Source of the DNA: an uncultured Candidatus Saccharibacteria bacterium
GTDB lineage: Bacteria > Patescibacteriota > Minisyncoccia > Phycocordibacterales > DATDWN01
Assembly (NCBI GenBank): GCA_964586695.1
Contig: CAZPGQ010000002.1
Span: 6,337 to 70,336 of the forward strand
Length of the DNA: 64,000 nucleotides
Direction of reading: 5' to 3'
Each line of letters begins with the position of its first letter. The first letter of the stretch is position 1. The translations under genes and the position numbers were made by a program. Below are positions 6,001-45,340 of this stretch, one piece after another. The notes beneath the pieces were generated by a model. The model was not told where the DNA came from, did not search any database, and saw only the letters and a program-made list of their open reading frames with translations.

Positions 6001-9000
6001 CCTGTCCATGCACCACCAGCACCACCTGCGCCAGCAGATCCTCCTGCACCAGCTACACCAACTACACTACCGGTAGTATGGTAACTTTCTCTAACTGACA
6101 ACGTGCTGTTACCTGCAATTCCTCCAATATATAAAACTCCAGCTGCACCTCCAGTTCCGCCAGCAATACCAGCAAGTCCGTTCTGGGCCGCCACACCTGT
6201 GGCTCCTGCACCACCTGCACCACCAGTGCCAGACACAGCATTTGTAGAAGATGCAAATGCATTAACACCAAGATTACTTGCAACAACACCTCCAACATAT
6301 GCAGTACCACCAGCTCCACCTGCACCAGATGCACCCCCGGCACCAGATGTTCCCGCTGATCCCTTTGCACCACCGGATCCTCCAGTACCCCCAACTCCTC
6401 CAACTCCACCGACGACACTAACTAGTCCAGTCGTTGAATTTACATATCTAATCGCTCCATTATTTAATCCAACCAAGCCACCTGAATATGCTCCACCACC
6501 AGCACCACCAACAGACCCAGCTCCACCAGCACCACCTGTACCTGTAGTAGTAAGTGAAGCACTACCACCTGCTCCACCCGTAGTACCATTTTTACCCGCA
6601 GATCCTGTTGCCGTTACAACACCACTAGCGTAAACTTCTAAAGTTTCGCCTGAAATAATTCCTGATATACCATTTTGAGCAACGAGTCCTCCAGCGTATG
6701 CGATTGCTCCAGCACCACCAGCACCTCCAGTCGCAGTTGCACCAGATGCACCAGCAGCCACTGAACCCGCGGCAGAAGCACCACCCGCACTTCCCGCTGA
6801 ACCGTTACCTGGTGTACCACCAGTTGCCTGGACAACTCCTGTTGCATAACTTCCATTTTCAATAGTTCCTGAATTGTTTCCAACTAATCCACCTGCATAC
6901 GAAACACCACCAATTCCTCCAGCGGCACCGGCACCACCAATTCCTCCAATATTTGATCCTCCACCACCAGTTCCTGCATTACCCCCAGTACCAGATGTTC
7001 CTGCATTACCACCTGCACCACCTAGCGCAGTAACTTCTCCAGTAGTGAAAGAGGAACTCACTGTCCCGGCTTGTATCCATCCTACAAGTCCTCCAACATA
7101 AGAAACGCCTCCGGCTCCAGCTACTGCAGCTGCACCGCCTGCTCCACCAATTCCAGTTCCAACTCCAGTGACTGATCCATTTCCTCCATTTCCTGCATTT
7201 CCACTTGCACCTCCTGCTCCACCAGTACCAATAATTGTTGCCGTACTTGTTGCAGTTGCAATACTTCCTTGTTGTGAATATCCAACTACACCTCCCACAT
7301 ACACAGTACCGCCAATTGCAGCGGCATTACTAACAGCTGAACCACCTAAACCACCAGTGTTCGTCCCAGTTGTAGTGTTTCCACCGTTACCGCCAGCACC
7401 TCCTGCACCACCAGCACCTCCTGCACCAGTAACACTTCCCGCAACTCCAACATTTGTAATTGTTCCTGTGTTATATCCAACCAAACCACCGAGATATAAA
7501 ACACTACCCGCAGTACCAGCACCACCGTTAGTACCCGCAGTTGGTGATGCTCCATCCGATCCAGCTGAACCAGTACTACCTACAGTTCCCGCGGTACTTG
7601 TTGCACTAACAGATAAACCAGAAAGATATACATTTTGAATAAGGTTTGTTGAATATCCAAAAATTCCCACATAACTTGATGTCGTTGTGGCAATAAATAA
7701 ATTGCTTATGGTGAAATTATTTCCATCAAAAATTCCTGTAAATGTATTAACAGTTGAATTGCCCACTGGATCAAAACCGGCTCCAGAGTTCCAACCAGTT
7801 GTATTTGTGGCATCTATGTTGTTGTTTAATTTATAAGAACTTGATGTCGCAGTTTTCATTCCCTGTAGTCCATACACATCATAAATTATGAAAGGGTCTG
7901 TACTTATACCCAATCCGGTATATCGACGAAATGTACCTGCGCTTACAGAAAAACTTCCTGTCACGGTTAATGTATTTGTTTCAGGATTGGTCGCTGTAAA
8001 TGTCGCTGCAGATGTCTGAGAATAATTTCCAGACTGGCCACCAGAGTTTGTAATTGTAAGATCTTCACTTTGAACAATTGTCCCTGTATATCCACTGATA
8101 GTGATTGAGCCTGCAGTCGCAGAAGTATCTATGGTAATTACAGAAGATGCAGATCCAGAACTTGCATCAAAAAATACCGCAGTTGTTGCATCTGGAATAC
8201 CACCAAAACTTCCAGCCACACCGTTAGAAGATGCAGCCCATTTGTTTGAATCAGACCAATTTCCAGTACCTCCCACCCAGTAAGCATTTGGGTCAGTGAT
8301 GTAGTCTATCTCAATATTACCAATAATCTTTAAATCAAAAACTGCTGTCGGATTTATAAGCCCATTAAGAACTAGACTGTATCTTCCGTCACTACCGATT
8401 GTCGCAAAAGTTCCAACGTATGTACCATCAATTGTATAAACTTCTACCGTTACGGGAGAGCTGGAGCTAGCAGGTCGAGCAAACAATGTAATGTCACGTG
8501 TATTATCCAAAAGATGTTCAAATGTAACTCGCACATACTGCCCATCTAAAATACTCACATAATTTTGATCACGTGTTTTAACTAAATCATAAATATCCTC
8601 AATAACATTTTTAGCACTGTCCAATCTCATAGCATTTGAAATTAAAATAATTTCAAAAATCTGTGTAGACAAATGTGGAACTATCCATGCTACGTGATCT
8701 ATGTAACCGTTTCCATCTTCATCAGTTGCAACAAATTGCATTTCCTGAGCTCCGTTATTTTTCCACTGAATTTTAATTTTACTTTCATCACCCACTTTAA
8801 AAATTTCTGGTATAGCAGTTTGAACTGGAATGTTTATCATCGGTGTAATCAACTCCTGTTCCGGTGTTGCTGAAACTACTACTGTTTTTCCATTCTCTGA
8901 AATTTGCTCAACGATTGTTGGAATTTCTATTTGTGAAGATTGCGAACCTCCACCAGAAAGTGAATCATGGGTTTCAACTGAAGTTGTAGAATTCTGACTT

Positions 9001-14530: not shown

Positions 14531-14557
14531 TTACGTCTTGTGTCGAGGGTGGGTTAC
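14531..14557 (-). repeat. Direct repeat of the last about 27 nt (T-arm 3' side + acceptor 3' strand + trailer) of the tRNA(CAU) gene at 14700-14772
   Basis: cgtcttgtgtcgagggtgggttac at 14533-14557 matches cgtttgtgtcgagggtgggttac at 14697-14720. The intervening about 140 bp is GC-rich with multiple hairpins (gcgac..gtcgc, cctggtc-tact-gaccagg, gaaagccg-taaca-cggctttc). Confidence 0.7.
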
Positions 14558-14699
14558 TTCCGCGACTATTTTTTCGCCGTCGCTCAAAAATGTCGTGTCC
14601 GCGACTCGCGACCTGGTCTACTGACCAGGTGCCCGCTCCGTCCATCGAACCCACACGAAAGCCGTAACACGGCTTTCTCCTCGCACAAAACTACGTTTG

Positions 14700-14772
14700 T
14701 GTCGAGGGTGGGTTACGATCCCACTGCCTTGGGCTTATGAGTCCCACGCTCTACCAATTGAGCTACCCCGAC
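14700..14772 (-). tRNA. tRNA with CAU anticodon (elongator Met or Ile2/lysidine type)
   Basis: Minus strand: G1-C72 acceptor gtcgggg/cctcgac, D arm gctc/gagc, loop ctCATaa (A31-G39 mismatch noted), T arm gtggg-atcgtaa-cccac. Confidence 0.65.
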
Positions 14773-38647: not shown

Positions 38648-38737
38648 ATGCTCAACATTATCTCACTCAGAGAAATAAAAGTCTATGAAATATGAGAACT
38701 TATCCACAAAACATTCGGCATATTTAAAATTCCAATG

Positions 38738-38826
38738 CGGAGACGGACGGATTCGAACCGTCGGTGCCGTTTAAAGGGCACACCTCTTTAGCAAAGAGGC
38801 ACGTTAGACCACTCTGACACGTCTCC
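38738..38826 (-). tRNA. tRNA-Ser (anticodon GCU), class II
   Basis: Acceptor ggagacg/cgtctcc, anticodon stem cctct/agagg, loop ttGCTaa, long variable arm, T arm ttcgaat. Confidence 0.75.
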
Positions 38827-38891
38827 AATATAGTGCAGATTATCACAAATAGGCATTTTTTAAAATGTTGTGATATATTTACTTTTATCTT

Positions 38892-38978
38892 GGAGAGATG
38901 GATGAGTGGCTTAAATCAACGGTTTACTAAACCGTCATCCCTTAATTGGGATCGCGAGTTCGAATCTCGCTCTCTCCG
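38892..38978 (+). tRNA. Class II (Ser-type) tRNA whose anticodon reads ACU as drawn (unusual A34). Needs tRNAscan-SE verification.
   Basis: Acceptor ggagaga/tctctcc, D stem gat/atc, anticodon stem acggt/accgt, loop ttACTaa, variable stem atccc/gggat, T arm gcgag-ttcgaat-ctcgc. Confidence 0.6.
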
Positions 38979-39125
38979 CAAGTAAAAATTACTTGTAATT
39001 TTTATCGAAGGAGAGGAGGACTAGCTTTTTGTATTCAAAAAGCGTTAGTCGATTCGAAAAGGTTCTTTAGATATTTTTAGAGCTTGCGAATAAAAATATC
39101 AAAAACCTGCACTGAAACTGTAAGT

Positions 39126-39147
39126 TTCGAATCTCGCTCTCTCCGCA
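39126..39147 (+). repeat. Direct repeat of the 3'-terminal 22 nt of the tRNA at 38892-38978, located about 145 bp downstream
   Basis: ttcgaatctcgctctctccgca occurs at 38959-38980 and again at 39126-39147. Confidence 0.7.
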
Positions 39148-42134: not shown

Positions 42135-44294
42135 ATGCGCGCAGATTCTACACTAAAGGAAAATTTTAGACTTACAGAATTACAAAGAAAAGCTTTGGCT
42201 AAAATAGGTATTTCTACAGTCGAAGATATGTTGTATCACTTCCCTGTTCGATACGGGGACACAGCCCAAGTGTCATATGTAGATAGCCTAACAAAAGGGA
42301 CAGACTCAGTTATTTTTGGAACCATTTCAGGACTCAAAACTAGTAAAGCTTTTATCAAAAAAATTCCAATGTCAGAAGCTGTGGTGGAAGATGAAACTGG
42401 AAAAATAAAACTGGTTTGGTTCAACCAGCCATACATAGCAAAAATGATGCGCGAAGGTGCACTAGTTCGTGTCGAAGGAAAAGTTACCGAAAGAAAAAAT
42501 GAGCTCTATATGAGTAACCCCAAAATAGAAATGATTAACCAGTTACCAAATGCAGTTGGTGATTCTCTTTTTGGTAAGGCTGAAGGTGACGAACACTCAA
42601 TGTATCCAGTCTACCCAGAAAGCAAAGGTGTGACTTCCTACTGGATGTACCACACAATACAGAAAATATTTTCTGCTGGAGTTCTAGATAACATCTCCGA
42701 CCCCATACCAGAAGATATTTTGAAAAAGTACAACTTACCTGGAATAAAAACGGCACTCATATGGGTTCACACACCAAAAAACGAAAACGATGCCCTGTCT
42801 GCAAGAAAAAGATTTGCTTTTCAAGAAATATTTTTCATCCAACTAGAAAAACAAAAAGAGAAAAAACTTTGGGCAGAGAAAAGTAGTTTCAATATTCAAA
42901 CAAGCGAAAAAGATGTTATGGATTTTGTTAAACGTTTTCCATTTGAAGCAACAGCTTCACAAATGGATGCGATAAAATCTATAACATCTGACTTTCGTCG
43001 AGGTCACCCAATGTCCAGACTCCTAGAGGGAGACGTGGGGTCTGGGAAAACAGCAGTCGCAGCAACAACAATATATGCAGTAACTAATGCCAGACCAAAT
43101 GGAAAGGATTATGGTAACCTCCAAACAGCATATATGGTACCGACTGAGATCCTTGCAAAACAACATTATGAAAATTTTATAAGTTACTTTAATCACCTCC
43201 CTATAAAAATAGGTCTGGTTACTGGGAGTGAATGTAAAATATTCCCTAGTAAAAGTGACCCAACAAAACCAACCAAAATTTCCAAAGCTCAGTTACTAAA
43301 ATGGGTTGCAAATGGCGAGGTGCCAATACTTATTGGCACTCATGCACTCATACAAAAATCCGTAACATTTAAACACCTAGCTTTTGTTGTTATCGACGAA
43401 CAACATCGTTTTGGAACTCTGCAAAGACAGAAACTGACAACCAAAAACGAGATGCTCCCCCACCTACTTTCAATGACAGCGACCCCTATTCCCCGAACAC
43501 TGGCTCTTACTATATACGGCGACCTCGATATAACAGTTCTAGAAGGAATGCCTCATGGAAGAAAACCAATTATTACAAAAGTTGTTCCGACAGTTGATCG
43601 GAAAAATACATATGAGGAAATCAGAAATGAACTAAAAGCTGGGAGACAGCTGTATGTTATCTGCCCACGTATCGATGAACCGGATCCAACAAAAGAAATG
43701 GCAGTAATGGCTAAGTCAGTAACCCTCGAAGCCGAAAGATTGAAAAAAGAAGTATTCAAAGAGTACACCATCGACATTTTACACAGCAAAATGACCCCGG
43801 CAGAAAAAGAATCTGTGATGACAAAGTTTGAGCAAGGCAAAACAAAAATACTTGTAGCTACTTCTGTGGTTGAAGTTGGTGTGAATGTACCAAATGCAAC
43901 TGTTATTATTATCGAGGGGGCAGAAAGATTTGGTCTCTCACAACTCCATCAGTTACGAGGTCGTGTCATACGTTCCAACCATCAGGCCTACTGCTATGTA
44001 TTTCCAGAAAGTAATGGTCAAAAAACCAAAGATAGACTGAAAGCACTAACTACTGCAAAAAATGGTTTTGAACTTGCAGAGTTCGACCTACAACAGCGAG
44101 GAGCGGGCGAACTATACGGACGAAAACAATGGGGTATCTCCGACCTAGCTATGGAGGCAATAAAAAATATAAAAATGGTAGAAGCTTCTAGAAACGAAGC
44201 GTTGAGACTCGTAGATGAAGATGTTGAGTTTAAAAAATATCCAATGATACAAGAGTACTTTAAAAACCAGACTAACAAAATACATTTTGAATAA
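42135..44294 (+). CDS. recG: ATP-dependent DNA helicase RecG
   Basis: 719 aa. N-terminal wedge domain. Helicase motif I GDVGSGKTAVAA, DEQHRFG, QLRGRVIR. Confidence 0.85.
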   Translation: MRADSTLKENFRLTELQRKALAKIGISTVEDMLYHFPVRYGDTAQVSYVDSLTKGTDSVIFGTISGLKTSKAFIKKIPMSEAVVEDETGKIKLVWFNQPYIAKMMREGALVRVEGKVTERKNELYMSNPKIEMINQLPNAVGDSLFGKAEGDEHSMYPVYPESKGVTSYWMYHTIQKIFSAGVLDNISDPIPEDILKKYNLPGIKTALIWVHTPKNENDALSARKRFAFQEIFFIQLEKQKEKKLWAEKSSFNIQTSEKDVMDFVKRFPFEATASQMDAIKSITSDFRRGHPMSRLLEGDVGSGKTAVAATTIYAVTNARPNGKDYGNLQTAYMVPTEILAKQHYENFISYFNHLPIKIGLVTGSECKIFPSKSDPTKPTKISKAQLLKWVANGEVPILIGTHALIQKSVTFKHLAFVVIDEQHRFGTLQRQKLTTKNEMLPHLLSMTATPIPRTLALTIYGDLDITVLEGMPHGRKPIITKVVPTVDRKNTYEEIRNELKAGRQLYVICPRIDEPDPTKEMAVMAKSVTLEAERLKKEVFKEYTIDILHSKMTPAEKESVMTKFEQGKTKILVATSVVEVGVNVPNATVIIIEGAERFGLSQLHQLRGRVIRSNHQAYCYVFPESNGQKTKDRLKALTTAKNGFELAEFDLQQRGAGELYGRKQWGISDLAMEAIKNIKMVEASRNEALRLVDEDVEFKKYPMIQEYFKNQTNKIHFE

Positions 44295-44299
44295 AAGTT

Positions 44300-44620
44300 A
44301 AATATTGGAAAAGCCCGCGGAAAGCCTCAAAGTTGCGGACTTTTCCTACGGGCTAGAGAAGAACTACCTTATGGACGAGTGTCGTGGATCCGTGGTCTTT
44401 CGGCGTCATACTCGTGCCTTCTGGCACGACCATTGTAACCCTGTGGTTATACCAACGGCCAACAGGAATGCTTCTCCTGTACACACCATAGATGACAACC
44501 TGACGAAGCACTGTAATGGTCCCCACCTCCTGGAAGTAGTCACCAATCTTGAGGTCGCCGAACTTTTCATCCCGAAATCTCTTACAGTTATCCTGCATAT
44601 GCCTCCCTACAGTCCATAAT
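44300..44620. other. GC-rich orphan segment of unknown nature (no confident ORF or RNA assignment). Possible remnant of an integrated element beside the tRNA-fragment cluster.
   Basis: Base composition visibly richer in G+C than flanks. Overlapping short ORFs on both strands (44305-44619 +, 44353-44598 -) without recognisable motifs. Confidence 0.4.
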
Positions 44621-44641
44621 ATTTATTAAGAATATATTGTC

Positions 44642-44672
44642 AAACTCTTGTGCGCCTGCCTGGAATCTGAAC
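44642..44672 (-). pseudogene. Degenerate tRNA 3' fragment (T arm + acceptor 3' strand ...caggcgcac)
   Basis: Minus-strand cccagaagttcagattccaggcaggcgcac resembles the 3' end of the tRNA at 44835-44908. Confidence 0.5.
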
Positions 44673-44719
44673 TTCTGGGAAACCCACGGTTTTCCCAATC
44701 CTTCCTCCACGGGAAACTC

Positions 44720-44744
44720 CCGTTTCCCGACCCCTTCCCTGGTT
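44720..44744 (+). pseudogene. Plus-strand tRNA 3' fragment (T arm cctgg-ttcgagt-ccagg + taggca) followed by terminator hairpin aaacgcctttcggcgttt
   Basis: Orientation opposite to the other copies. Confidence 0.45.
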
Positions 44745-44776
44745 CGAGTCCAGGTAGGCAAAAACGCCTTTCGGCG

Positions 44777-44826
44777 TTTATTCTGTGCGCCTGCCTGGAC
44801 TCGAACCAGGGACCCCAGAGGTATAT
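44777..44826 (-). pseudogene. tRNA 3' half (anticodon-loop 3' side through acceptor end). Variant copy with compensatory T-stem swap.
   Basis: Minus-strand tatacctctggggtccctggttcgagtccaggcaggcgcac. T stem cctgg/ccagg versus ccagg/cctgg in the intact gene. Confidence 0.6.
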
Positions 44827-44834
44827 GGGGAAGA

Positions 44835-44908
44835 AAACTCCGTGCGCCTGCCAGGATTCGAACCTGGGACCCCAGAGGTATAAGCTCTGTGCTCTAACCA
44901 ACTGAGCT
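44835..44908 (-). tRNA. tRNA-Ile (anticodon UAU) by loop reading
   Basis: Acceptor gcgcctg/caggcgc, D arm gctc-agttggtta-gagc, anticodon stem cagag/ctctg, loop ctTATac, T arm ccagg-ttcgaat-cctgg. Confidence 0.65.
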
Positions 44909-44988
44909 ACAGGCGCACGCAATTTTCTTCCATCCCATATAGCTGGTTCGATCGGATGTAATGAAAGCAAGCTTTCGCCACATCCTCA

Positions 44989-45027
44989 CTGCCAGCTATA
45001 AGCTCTGTGCTCTAACCAACTGAGCTA
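44989..45027 (-). pseudogene. tRNA 5' half (positions 1 to about 37, ends inside anticodon loop cttata), identical to the 5' half of the tRNA at 44835-44908
   Basis: Minus-strand tgcgcctgtagctcagttggttagagcacagagcttata. Followed by an 80-nt segment bounded by gctgg...ccagc instead of a 3' half. Confidence 0.65.
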
Positions 45028-45043
45028 CAGGCGCATTTATGTT

Positions 45044-45340
45044 ATGATTAACTCATATAAATTAGCACACTTTATGAAAAATAAAAACACACATAAAAAG
45101 TTGTGGTTCAAATCAAAAATGTATGGCTGGGGCTGGCAACCATGTAGCTGGGAAGGTTGGGCTGTCCTCGCTCTTTATATAACAACACTAACTGTTAACT
45201 TTATAAACACAAATAAAATCTATACTACAACTCCTAACACTATTGCAGATTTTACTCCTGTTTTTGTAATTAATACCTTTTTCCTTCTGACTATTTGTTA
45301 TATCAAAGGTGAAAAACCAAGGTGGAGATGGGGCAAATAA
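45044..45340 (+). CDS. Small membrane protein, function unknown
   Basis: 98-aa ORF with two hydrophobic helices. Ends at terminator hairpin. Confidence 0.4.
   Translation: MINSYKLAHFMKNKNTHKKLWFKSKMYGWGWQPCSWEGWAVLALYITTLTVNFINTNKIYTTTPNTIADFTPVFVINTFFLLTICYIKGEKPRWRWGK

Follow-up and report, generated by a model that had tools for sequence, protein, structure and literature searches.

One tRNA-Ile(UAU) gene within the anticodon loop of a second: a candidate insertional tRNA cassette in a patescibacterial genome

We analyzed a tRNA-Ile(UAU) locus in a 64,000-nt stretch of DNA from an uncultured Candidatus Saccharibacteria bacterium (contig CAZPGQ010000002.1, positions 6,337 to 70,336 of the forward strand), referred to as the window throughout. 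The resident tRNA gene of this locus is split in its anticodon loop by a 175-bp insertion, which itself contains a complete tRNA-Ile(UAU). We consider it probable, at roughly 60%, that the locus represents an insertional tRNA cassette that spreads by homologous recombination and is situated at a hotspot. This reading builds on the anatomy of the locus, on empty sites in relatives, on recurrence in other lineages, and on a local excess of sequence identity, all of which are directly observed.

Genes for tRNAs were called with ARAGORN and Rfam, and repeats, folds and the loci of relatives were compared around positions 44295-45043. Comparison loci are designated by L numbers. Among GTDB genomes, the 80 best matches to the RecG C-terminus are nearly all metagenome-assembled genomes (MAGs) labelled Patescibacteria (Parcubacteria/Zambryskibacteria-like), and many of their titles bear the generic label "Saccharibacteria". 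The window itself derives from a genome of this type. L011 is an independent SPAdes MAG, while L100 was taken from an ENA contig and L102-L105 from four JGI samples.

The initial annotation of the window had described an intact tRNA-Ile(UAU) amid tRNA halves and fragments in both orientations. All the listed pieces are present, far above chance expectation, but their coordinates were up to about 9 nt off, and the reading strand, which is the minus strand, had not been stated. On this strand, the locus begins with the 5' half of the outer (resident) tRNA-Ile(UAU) at 45034-44997 (previously placed at 44989-45027). It comprises positions 1-37, ends with CTTATA in the anticodon loop, and is identical to the 5' half of the inner tRNA in 38 of 38 nt. 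Directly after A37 of the outer tRNA begins a 55-nt hairpin, GCTGG...CCAGC (44996-44942), here termed P1, which is present in the minimum free energy (MFE) fold. The 80 nt ascribed to this segment earlier correspond to the whole distance between the 5' half and the inner tRNA. TATA and a leader (44941-44917) form the 5' arm of a helix, P2, around the inner tRNA. The complete inner tRNA-Ile(UAU), with T stem CCAGG/CCTGG, lies at 44916-44843 (not 44835-44908) and was detected by ARAGORN and by Rfam (74.6 bits). It is followed by the trailer GGAGTTTTCTTCCCCA (44842-44826), which is complementary to the leader and provides the 3' arm of P2. The 3' half of the outer tRNA, consisting of TATA and positions 38-73, is located at 44825-44786 (not 44777-44826), and its swapped T stem, CCTGG/CCAGG, is as originally described.

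With one TATA counted, the insertion extends over 175 bp (44996-44822, minus strand) and contains P1, followed by leader, inner tRNA and trailer. The junctions read CTTATA-GCTGG, in longer form CTTATA-GCTGGCAG, on the 5' side, and CCCCATATA-CCTCTG, in longer form CCCCATATA-CCTCTGGGG, on the 3' side. An uninterrupted site with the outer T stem would have the sequence CTTATACCTCTG, and a circle junction of the insert the sequence CCCCATATAGCTGG. TATA is found on both sides of the insert and is also the sequence of the anticodon loop itself. Owing to this repeat, the insertion point may be drawn between A37 and C38 or shifted by at most 4 nt in the 5' direction.

The leader and trailer constitute a 22-nt inverted repeat with 91% complementarity, and P2 has a length of about 20 bp. 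The predicted energy of the duplex is -21.8 kcal/mol, compared with -1.2 to -8.8 kcal/mol at the seven other tRNAs of the window. In the MFE fold (z = -6.4), the outer halves pair with each other and the inner halves with each other, and the pairing probability of the outer acceptor stem is 0.999. Subtraction of the embedded tRNA and one TATA leaves about 97 nt of non-tRNA sequence in the insert. P1 did not match any Rfam family. At permissive thresholds, Rfam searches of the window locus and related loci returned only tRNA and tmRNA, together with weak matches overlapping tRNAs or hairpins that we take as spurious. BLAST of the locus against phage genomes gave generic tRNA matches to the inner tRNA only.

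Joined to each other, the outer halves correspond exactly to the intact tRNA of L002, L004, L016, L022 and L032, and the outer 3' half agrees in 40 of 40 nt with the 3' portion of the uninterrupted genes of L002, L004 and L032. Comparison with sister genomes, as proposed in the initial annotation, identified empty sites for the 175-bp insert in L002 and L100, and for a separate 135-bp element, described below, in L102. In L002, which is 97% identical in the RecG segment, the 5' and 3' halves are contiguous as one tRNA with homologous flanks. In L100, the neighboring gene is 98.6% identical at the nucleotide level, the leader is identical, and the anticodon region is uninterrupted. The sequence upstream of the resident 5' half shows homology to the tRNA leader in L002, L100 and L102. 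The match of the joined halves to intact tRNAs and the uninterrupted sites in L002 and L100 indicate that the window has a 175-bp insertion in a resident gene. Judged from these alignments, the outer halves, once taken for leftovers of separate integrations, are two parts of this single gene that flank one insertion. Four T-stem positions and one T-loop position distinguish the inner copy from the outer one. The inner tRNA is 100% identical to the tRNA of L003, and both T-stem versions are found as intact tRNAs in relatives. The earlier suggestion that the swapped T stem stems from a functional allele was thus correct, and this allele is the resident one.

The exact 175-bp insert was found in three lineages, represented by the window, L011 and L102-L105. 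In L102-L105, the nested region is identical to the window in 256 of 258 positions (P1 55/55, trailer 17/17, leader 24/25). The surroundings are far less alike, with 84.6% identity for recG, 78% for the rest of the neighboring gene, and 83-86% for ftsH. A tract of about 350 bp that stands out so clearly in similarity from the adjoining sequence indicates that a transfer by homologous recombination took place recently. In L102, the T stem of the outer 3' half is chimeric, CCAGG...CCAGG, with an A x A mismatch, which is consistent with a crossover within the tRNA and with an outer copy free from selection at the tRNA level. In L011, which is 83% identical in the RecG segment, the order of elements and the junctions are the same, and the outer halves match in 77 of 78 nt. 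In the window, they are intact, with 78 of 78 nt. P1 of L011 is only about 69% identical to P1 of the window, yet three of its stem pairs are altered on both sides with pairing kept. Across P1 and the leader/trailer helix, 5-6 pairs are changed on both sides and still paired. The termini of the insert also differ (TGGG..GAAG in the window versus TCAGGAT in L011). In a RecG tree, the window and L011 belong to separate subclades, with many insert-free lineages between them.

Searches for further copies were negative. BLAST with the 55-nt P1, the sole part of the insert that was queried, found no second copy in the window or in 81 related loci. The exact P1 motif GGCAGTGAGGANNNGGCGAAAG had 16 matches in JGI metagenome contigs, all of them chance matches without tRNA context and apparently within coding sequence of unrelated organisms. 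Neither the P1 motif nor a motif of the Y insert (see below) had any match in the viral contigs of IMG/VR.

A nested arrangement could in principle arise if strain variants of one tRNA locus were collapsed or concatenated during assembly. The window apparently comes from a short-read metagenome assembly, several alleles of the locus exist in the population, and Logan contigs break at the repeats. In the contigs from the two sequencing runs concerned, the ends are located at or within the repeats, which is consistent with the repeats being real. Moreover, the repeats are just 38-44 nt long, and the novel junctions link unique sequence to tRNA halves over spans exceeding the repeats. The nested order was independently assembled in L011 and in the four samples of L102-L105, and analogous arrangements were assembled in L039, L041, L106 and L024. 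The independent assemblies and the contig ends at repeats make an assembly artefact, including the collapse of tandem copies that had originally been named as a possible refutation, very unlikely.

The analogous loci are built on the same principle. In L039, L041 and L106/L107, a 5' tRNA part ending in CTTATA is followed by a complete tRNA-Ile(UAU) and then by a 3' fragment of another allele, and the leader and trailer of the inner tRNA are complementary. L108 has the flanks of L106/L107 and a single plain tRNA. L024 has a nested build in a tRNA-Ile(GAU) gene (7440-7790, minus strand), consisting of an outer 5' part, a complete inner tRNA and a decayed outer 3' half, with leader/trailer complementarity of about 30 bp by inspection. 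The outer 3' parts are decayed or mosaic in L024, L039, L041 and L106.

Several of these loci contain another GC-rich structured insert of about 96 nt, here termed Y, directly after the D-stem GAG of the outer 5' part or of tRNA-Ile-like genes. Copies of Y are located at 5756-5855 in L042, 4085-4181 in L039, 6320-6390 in L041, 7693-7756 in L024, 3470-3507 in L062, and about 1850-1950 in L106. Compensatory changes affect 11 of the 35 predicted pairs, and G-U pairs favor the tRNA strand. Y has no match in Rfam. Partial or permuted copies are present downstream of tRNAs in L003, L022 and L080. The start of P1 shares an AGUGAGG motif with Y, but relatedness of the two could not be established.

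According to the cassette reading that we favor, the inner tRNA would be the functional gene, and the outer halves would represent the disrupted gene. Transcription would start upstream of the outer 5' half, and ordinary end processing would free the inner tRNA. An insertion between A37 and C38 would presumably be tolerated only because its own copy of a probably essential tRNA comes along, and it may persist because this rescue copy is carried. The simplest route for spread between related species would be homologous recombination, with the near-invariant tRNA halves and the adjacent flank as arms. Over its first approximately 12 nt, the trailer matches the sequence natively found 3' of the single tRNA of L004. 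Since the leader is an inverted copy of the trailer, and the trailer corresponds to this native flank, the cassette looks derived from an ordinary tRNA locus. More speculatively, it may have originated by fold-back copying on the acceptor-stem palindrome. The T-stem mismatch of the outer tRNA in L102 and the decayed or mosaic outer 3' parts of the analogous loci support the view that the outer gene is a relic.

Several points weigh against this reading. We know of no precedent for a whole tRNA placed into an anticodon loop, and in the window the insert is not associated with a nuclease, transposase or recombinase. Only three lineages carry the exact insert, and the motif scan of JGI metagenomes added none. 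The outer halves with 78 of 78 (window) and 77 of 78 (L011) matching nt are also what a functional spliced outer tRNA would predict. Shuffling of the leader in a thermodynamic model reduces correct pairing of the inner tRNA from 0.999 to a mean of 0.94 only. Finally, the compensatory changes in both helices suggest selection for an RNA or single-strand structure whose purpose is not evident. Two other ideas were considered. A folding "clamp" role of the leader/trailer helix, which would shield the folding inner tRNA from the outer halves, had a small effect in the thermodynamic model, and an origin by tandem triplication and two deletions is less parsimonious and was rejected because three lineages share identical junctions.

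The preservation of the outer halves raises the question of whether the 175-nt insert is removed from the outer pre-tRNA as RNA, like an intron, so that the locus would give two mature tRNA-Ile isodecoders. RNase P and an enzyme of 3' end processing would excise the inner tRNA. Trimming and ligation of the outer halves, kept together by the leader/trailer helix like split tRNAs, would fall to an unknown bacterial activity. The insert is indeed at the canonical 37/38 intron position, and the ends of P1 and P2 coincide exactly with the exon borders, with compensatory changes that maintain the pairing of both helices. The outer acceptor stem is almost always paired in the fold, and the outer halves are intact in the window and have a single-base difference, leading to a G-U pair, in L011. 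Furthermore, tRNA introns are unusually plentiful in Patescibacteria (PMC13011429). However, we did not detect a group I core or a known ribozyme, the junctions by inspection do not admit a bulge-helix-bulge motif, and a bacterial enzyme set for such a reaction is not known. The survey of Patescibacteria has group I introns at nearly all anticodon-loop positions save 37/38 (PMC13011429). In L102, the outer T stem has the A x A mismatch, and the outer 3' parts of the analogous L024, L039 and L041 would be unable to make a tRNA. Taken together, we regard removal at the RNA level as unlikely. The bolder version, in which the insert would represent a novel type of intron for bacterial tRNA genes, a "tRNA within a tRNA" with one transcript, two mature tRNA-Ile and an undescribed joining pathway, appears rather improbable.

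The insert can also be viewed as a by-product of double-strand-break repair. A nuclease targeting tRNA-Ile, such as the GIY-YIG nuclease encoded in relatives (see below), would cut the gene. Fold-back priming at the acceptor-stem palindrome would then produce a cassette with inverted leader and trailer, which would be captured at the TATA microhomology of the anticodon loop, and the product would be a neutral scar that was later spread by recombination. This scheme would account for the leader as an inverted copy of the trailer, for the match of the trailer to the native 3' flank of the L004 tRNA, for the TATA at every junction, and for the same two imperfections in the proximal helix of the window and L011. 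It is also in line with the relic 5' fragment that L003 retains upstream of its GIY-YIG-plus-tRNA cassette. But the window locus is without a nuclease gene, and the inner anticodon stem-loop has the outer sequence, so that the inner tRNA would not escape such a nuclease. A pure scar would also leave the compensatory maintenance of P1 and of the distal part of P2 unexplained. We therefore consider a repair scar to be of low probability.

The split gene is located between recG (42135-44294, plus strand) and an open reading frame (ORF) for a membrane-like protein of 98 amino acids (45044-45340, plus strand). Beyond this ORF follow ftsH (minus strand), smpB and the tmRNA gene. The GC content, about 38% for the genome, rises to 51-59% in the region 44325-44925. 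The length of the recG-ftsH interval ranges from 190 nt in L004, where it contains the tRNA only, to more than 3 kb, and almost every close relative has its own arrangement. The hotspot postulated initially is borne out by this diversity, and the interval is evidently a site of recombination at which tRNA-Ile alleles and small cassettes appear to have been swapped repeatedly. L101 has a chimeric tRNA. In L040, with 98% identity in the RecG segment, the interval holds another tRNA-Ile(UAU) together with a different small GC-rich ORF and the gene for a 219-aa protein with a helix-turn-helix (HTH). In L003, L010 and L025, a GIY-YIG gene (Pfam, 6e-15) is located directly upstream of the tRNA-Ile(UAU).

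We also made some side observations on these genes. The GIY-YIG gene encodes 78 amino acids and in all three species ends a few bases 5' of the tRNA (5576-5809 in L003, 5361-5594 in L010, 5479-5712 in L025). Upstream of it, L003 retains a relic 5' fragment of a displaced tRNA gene, and this fragment itself carries a 36-nt GC-rich hairpin insertion. The 219-aa ORF of L040 (5195-5854, minus strand) adjoins the replaced tRNA-Ile allele and contains a motif, LLIAGLFLYWGEGTK, that is reminiscent of LAGLIDADG endonucleases but unconfirmed. PDB and NCBIfam searches gave only a weak match to an N-terminal HTH and no match to a LAGLIDADG family.

Downstream of the split gene, the window contains a 135-bp insertion (44649-44783, minus strand), which is independent of the 175-bp insertion. 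It is bounded by 16-nt exact direct repeats of the tRNA 3' end (44649-44664 = 44784-44799), of which the far copy ends a degenerate T arm, so that about 119 nt lie between the repeats. In the order of the minus strand, the element contains a predicted terminator hairpin, AAACGCC-GAAA-GGCGTTT with a T run (44760-44779), an inverted 24-nt copy of the T arm and acceptor (44736-44759, 96% complementary to 44789-44812), a hairpin (44711-44728), the linker GTGGAGGAAGGATT (44697-44710), a second hairpin (44677-44696), the degenerate T arm and the repeat. The terminator, which could act on both strands, was recognized from the sequence and is also present in the folds, but a consensus terminator scan did not flag it. 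This one insertion accounts for the terminator, the opposite-strand T-arm copy and the two tight hairpins, all of which had been noticed earlier, and for the degenerate 3' fragment, whose former borders (44642-44672) were approximate.

L102 is an empty site for the element, with the sequence ...TCCAGGCAGGCGCAC-AAGAGTTTGAC. The window has 135 bp between the repeat copies before the same AAGAGTTTGAC. The element is conserved in L002, L012, L017 and L032, and the L017 copy is inverted relative to recG. Its predicted fold consists of a closing helix and two hairpins (z = -2.5 for the minus, tRNA strand, and -5.3 for the plus strand). In L017, one hairpin pair is changed on both sides and still paired; that same hairpin is diverged in L032 and expanded in L002. 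The window, L012 and L017 have an identical linker GTGGAGGAAGGATT, whereas L002 differs by one substitution and conservation in L032 is limited to GTGGAGGAAGG. Its plus strand, on which the element folds better, is AAUCCUUCCUCCAC and resembles an anti-Shine-Dalgarno sequence.

The build is recurrent. A tRNA is followed by a terminator, by sequence complementary to the acceptor 3' strand, by a T arm in inverted orientation and by hairpins, and 15-21 nt of the tRNA 3' end are then repeated at +117 to +164. This build is found behind the tRNA-Met and tRNA-Ser(ACU) of the window and behind tRNAs in L017, L025, L036 and L044, and is absent at the tRNA-Ser(ACU) of L012 and L050. Behind the tRNA-Met (14699-14772, minus strand), a GC-rich structured segment is followed by an 18-nt exact 3'-end repeat (14540-14557), and the small hairpin that follows the tRNA is also repeated with compensating changes (window 14540-14772, minus strand). 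The tRNA-Ser with the unusual anticodon ACU (38892-38979, plus strand) is arranged head-to-head with tRNA-Ser(GCU) (window 38737-39146). It is followed by an insert of about 146 nt that ends in a 21-nt 3'-end repeat (39126-39146), and L012 and L050 are without this insert. In L003, L005, L009, L010, L015, L018, L020, L023 and L028, the terminator hairpin behind tRNA-Ile is extended, and the sequence past the T run complements the 3' acceptor strand of the tRNA itself, varying with the acceptor sequence.

The 135-bp element bears on the original interpretation of the locus, namely repeated tRNA-targeted integration and excision followed by decay, with the fragments as attL and attR remnants. 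Its 16-nt repeat runs from the T stem to the 3' end, which is the classic att position, and it has an empty site in L102. Similar elements are present or absent at other tRNAs among relatives, and the locus is hypervariable. The notion of integration scars is to this extent supported, but neither an integrase gene nor a relic of one was found within or beside the interval, and the ORFs in and around 44295-45043 are recG, the 81-aa ORF described below, the 98-aa membrane-like ORF and ftsH only, without a recombinase gene. The approximately 119 nt between the repeats are conserved and structured across species rather than decayed, and the mobile genes at the locus in relatives include a GIY-YIG nuclease, not recombinases. 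An integrase crossover in the anticodon loop, as initially proposed, would give two full tRNAs flanking the element, or a full tRNA and a 3' fragment. It cannot nest a complete tRNA in a split one, nor duplicate the 5' half in the observed order. A crossover between a chromosomal and an element-borne tRNA was rejected for the same reason, as it too predicts two flanking full tRNAs. As an explanation for the whole locus, integrase scars thus seem improbable.

The GC-rich block next to recG had been described as lacking a convincing ORF. It appears to be a separate small-gene cassette (44307-44643, minus strand) with a plausible gene and no integrase relic. The cassette comprises a promoter-like site, a ribosome binding site (RBS), an orphan ORF of 81 amino acids (ORF81, 44598-44353, minus strand) and a hairpin. 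The AGGGAGG RBS (44608-44602) is located 3 nt 5' of the ATG. The promoter-like sequence TTGACA-16-TATTAT (44643-44616, minus strand) scores 11/12, and is weak evidence alone because 1.2 such sites are expected by chance in the region. The terminator-like hairpin after the ORF81 stop (44307-44346, minus strand) has 12-nt arms with 92% complementarity. A search of 5.8 billion proteins for homologues of ORF81 returned the self-match only, and ORF81 did not match any Pfam, PHROG or NCBIfam family. Its AlphaFold2 model is unusable (mean pLDDT 41). The RRHTRAFW motif, formerly suggested as an integrase box-II remnant, is in a frame antisense to the better-supported ORF81, and this frame has no Pfam match. 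Relatives hold unrelated small ORFs in the slot of ORF81. The small GC-rich ORFs of L040 (4827-5072, minus strand) and L102 (1878-2159, minus strand) share a weak 37% identity over 41 amino acids and are unrelated to ORF81. By inspection, both have similar promoter-like sequences upstream, consisting of TTGACT, 17-18 nt, and TAATAT or TAGTAT.

Disrupted tRNA genes, whether intron-containing, split or permuted, have been described mainly for archaea and eukaryotes, and the interruptions known for bacterial tRNA genes are self-splicing introns. In the window, the canonical intron position of a bacterial tRNA gene is occupied by a short insert that consists mainly of a full second copy of this tRNA. 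The arrangement is shared across species, and its helices are maintained by compensatory changes. If the insert acts as a cassette at the DNA level, it would illustrate how a highly conserved and probably essential gene can harbor an insertion that is maintained and disseminated with the help of a rescue copy, and how conserved gene halves could serve as recombination arms. If it is instead removed at the RNA level, it would point to a new bacterial splicing route. In practical terms, nested loci hide the gene from tRNA finders and break assemblies, and elements of about 120-160 nt bounded by tRNA 3'-end repeats may be common and unannotated in Patescibacteria genomes. When the literature was searched in full text for bacterial tRNA genes that are nested or split, no paper turned up with such an arrangement in its title or abstract.

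Among known systems, free-standing homing-endonuclease cassettes, such as the GIY-YIG Seg genes in the tRNA regions of T-even phages, provide one point of comparison. They resemble the loci of L003, L010 and L025, in which a GIY-YIG gene abuts the tRNA-Ile, with a relic of the displaced gene in L003. They differ in that the window has no nuclease gene, and the specificity of the GIY-YIG proteins in relatives is putative. Miniature inverted-repeat transposable elements (MITEs) are likewise small and noncoding, and the insert has a terminal inverted repeat of about 22 nt with TATA on both sides, although this TATA is at the same time the sequence of the anticodon loop. In contrast to MITEs, there is one copy per locus and no other in the 64 kb, the termini vary between species with pairing kept, and the acceptor stem of the cargo tRNA is part of the repeat. 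The 175-bp insert seems to be MITE-like in form only.

Archaeal disrupted tRNA genes include genes with bulge-helix-bulge introns, split tRNAs (Nanoarchaeum) and permuted tRNAs. As in archaea, the interruption is located one base 3' of the anticodon, and complementary sequences beside the halves could hold them together. Unlike in archaea, the host is a bacterium, as indicated by tmRNA, SmpB, FtsH and RecG, and the intervening sequence is a complete tRNA of the same identity. By inspection, a bulge-helix-bulge cannot form, as CUUA at positions 32-35 cannot pair with the CAUA preceding the last two intron bases, and the folds at the borders between outer tRNA and insert have the form of a multi-helix junction. 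Reviews on archaeal disrupted tRNA genes are available (e.g. PMC4033280, PMC4090602). Group I introns in bacterial tRNA anticodon loops share with the insert the phylum, the loop, the patchy distribution and the hiding of genes from tRNA finders (PMC13011429). However, the insert, with about 97 nt of non-tRNA sequence, is too short and has no detectable core, and none of the borders permitted by the TATA gives an insert with a 3'-terminal G. The Rfam group I intron model had no match at E <= 10 in the region 44250-45100, nor at E <= 0.1 in eight related loci. Position 37/38 is the sole site of the anticodon loop without a group I intron in the survey of Patescibacteria (PMC13011429). On these sequence criteria, the 175-bp insert is not a group I intron.

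With tRNA-targeted integrase islands, the locus shares the targeting of a tRNA gene, the presence or absence among relatives, and the restoration of a working gene by the inserted DNA. For the 135-bp element alone, the likeness extends to the direct repeat of the tRNA 3' end that bounds the insert and to the empty site in L102. The inserts of 135 and 175 bp differ from islands in their lack of an integrase, and the nested insert brings a whole tRNA, not just the displaced part, and leaves 5' and 3' halves behind. In the E. coli tyrT locus, the repeats behind the tRNA reportedly each contain the last ~19 nt of tRNA-Tyr. The direct repeats of the 3' end at a fixed distance downstream of a tRNA gene are alike in the two cases. 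The element described here differs from tyrT in that only one unit is present, which combines an inverted copy of the T arm with conserved hairpins and occurs across several tRNA genes and species. Overall, the locus appears to add a variant both to disrupted tRNA genes and to tRNA-targeted insertions, with the integrase-scar interpretation right in part only.

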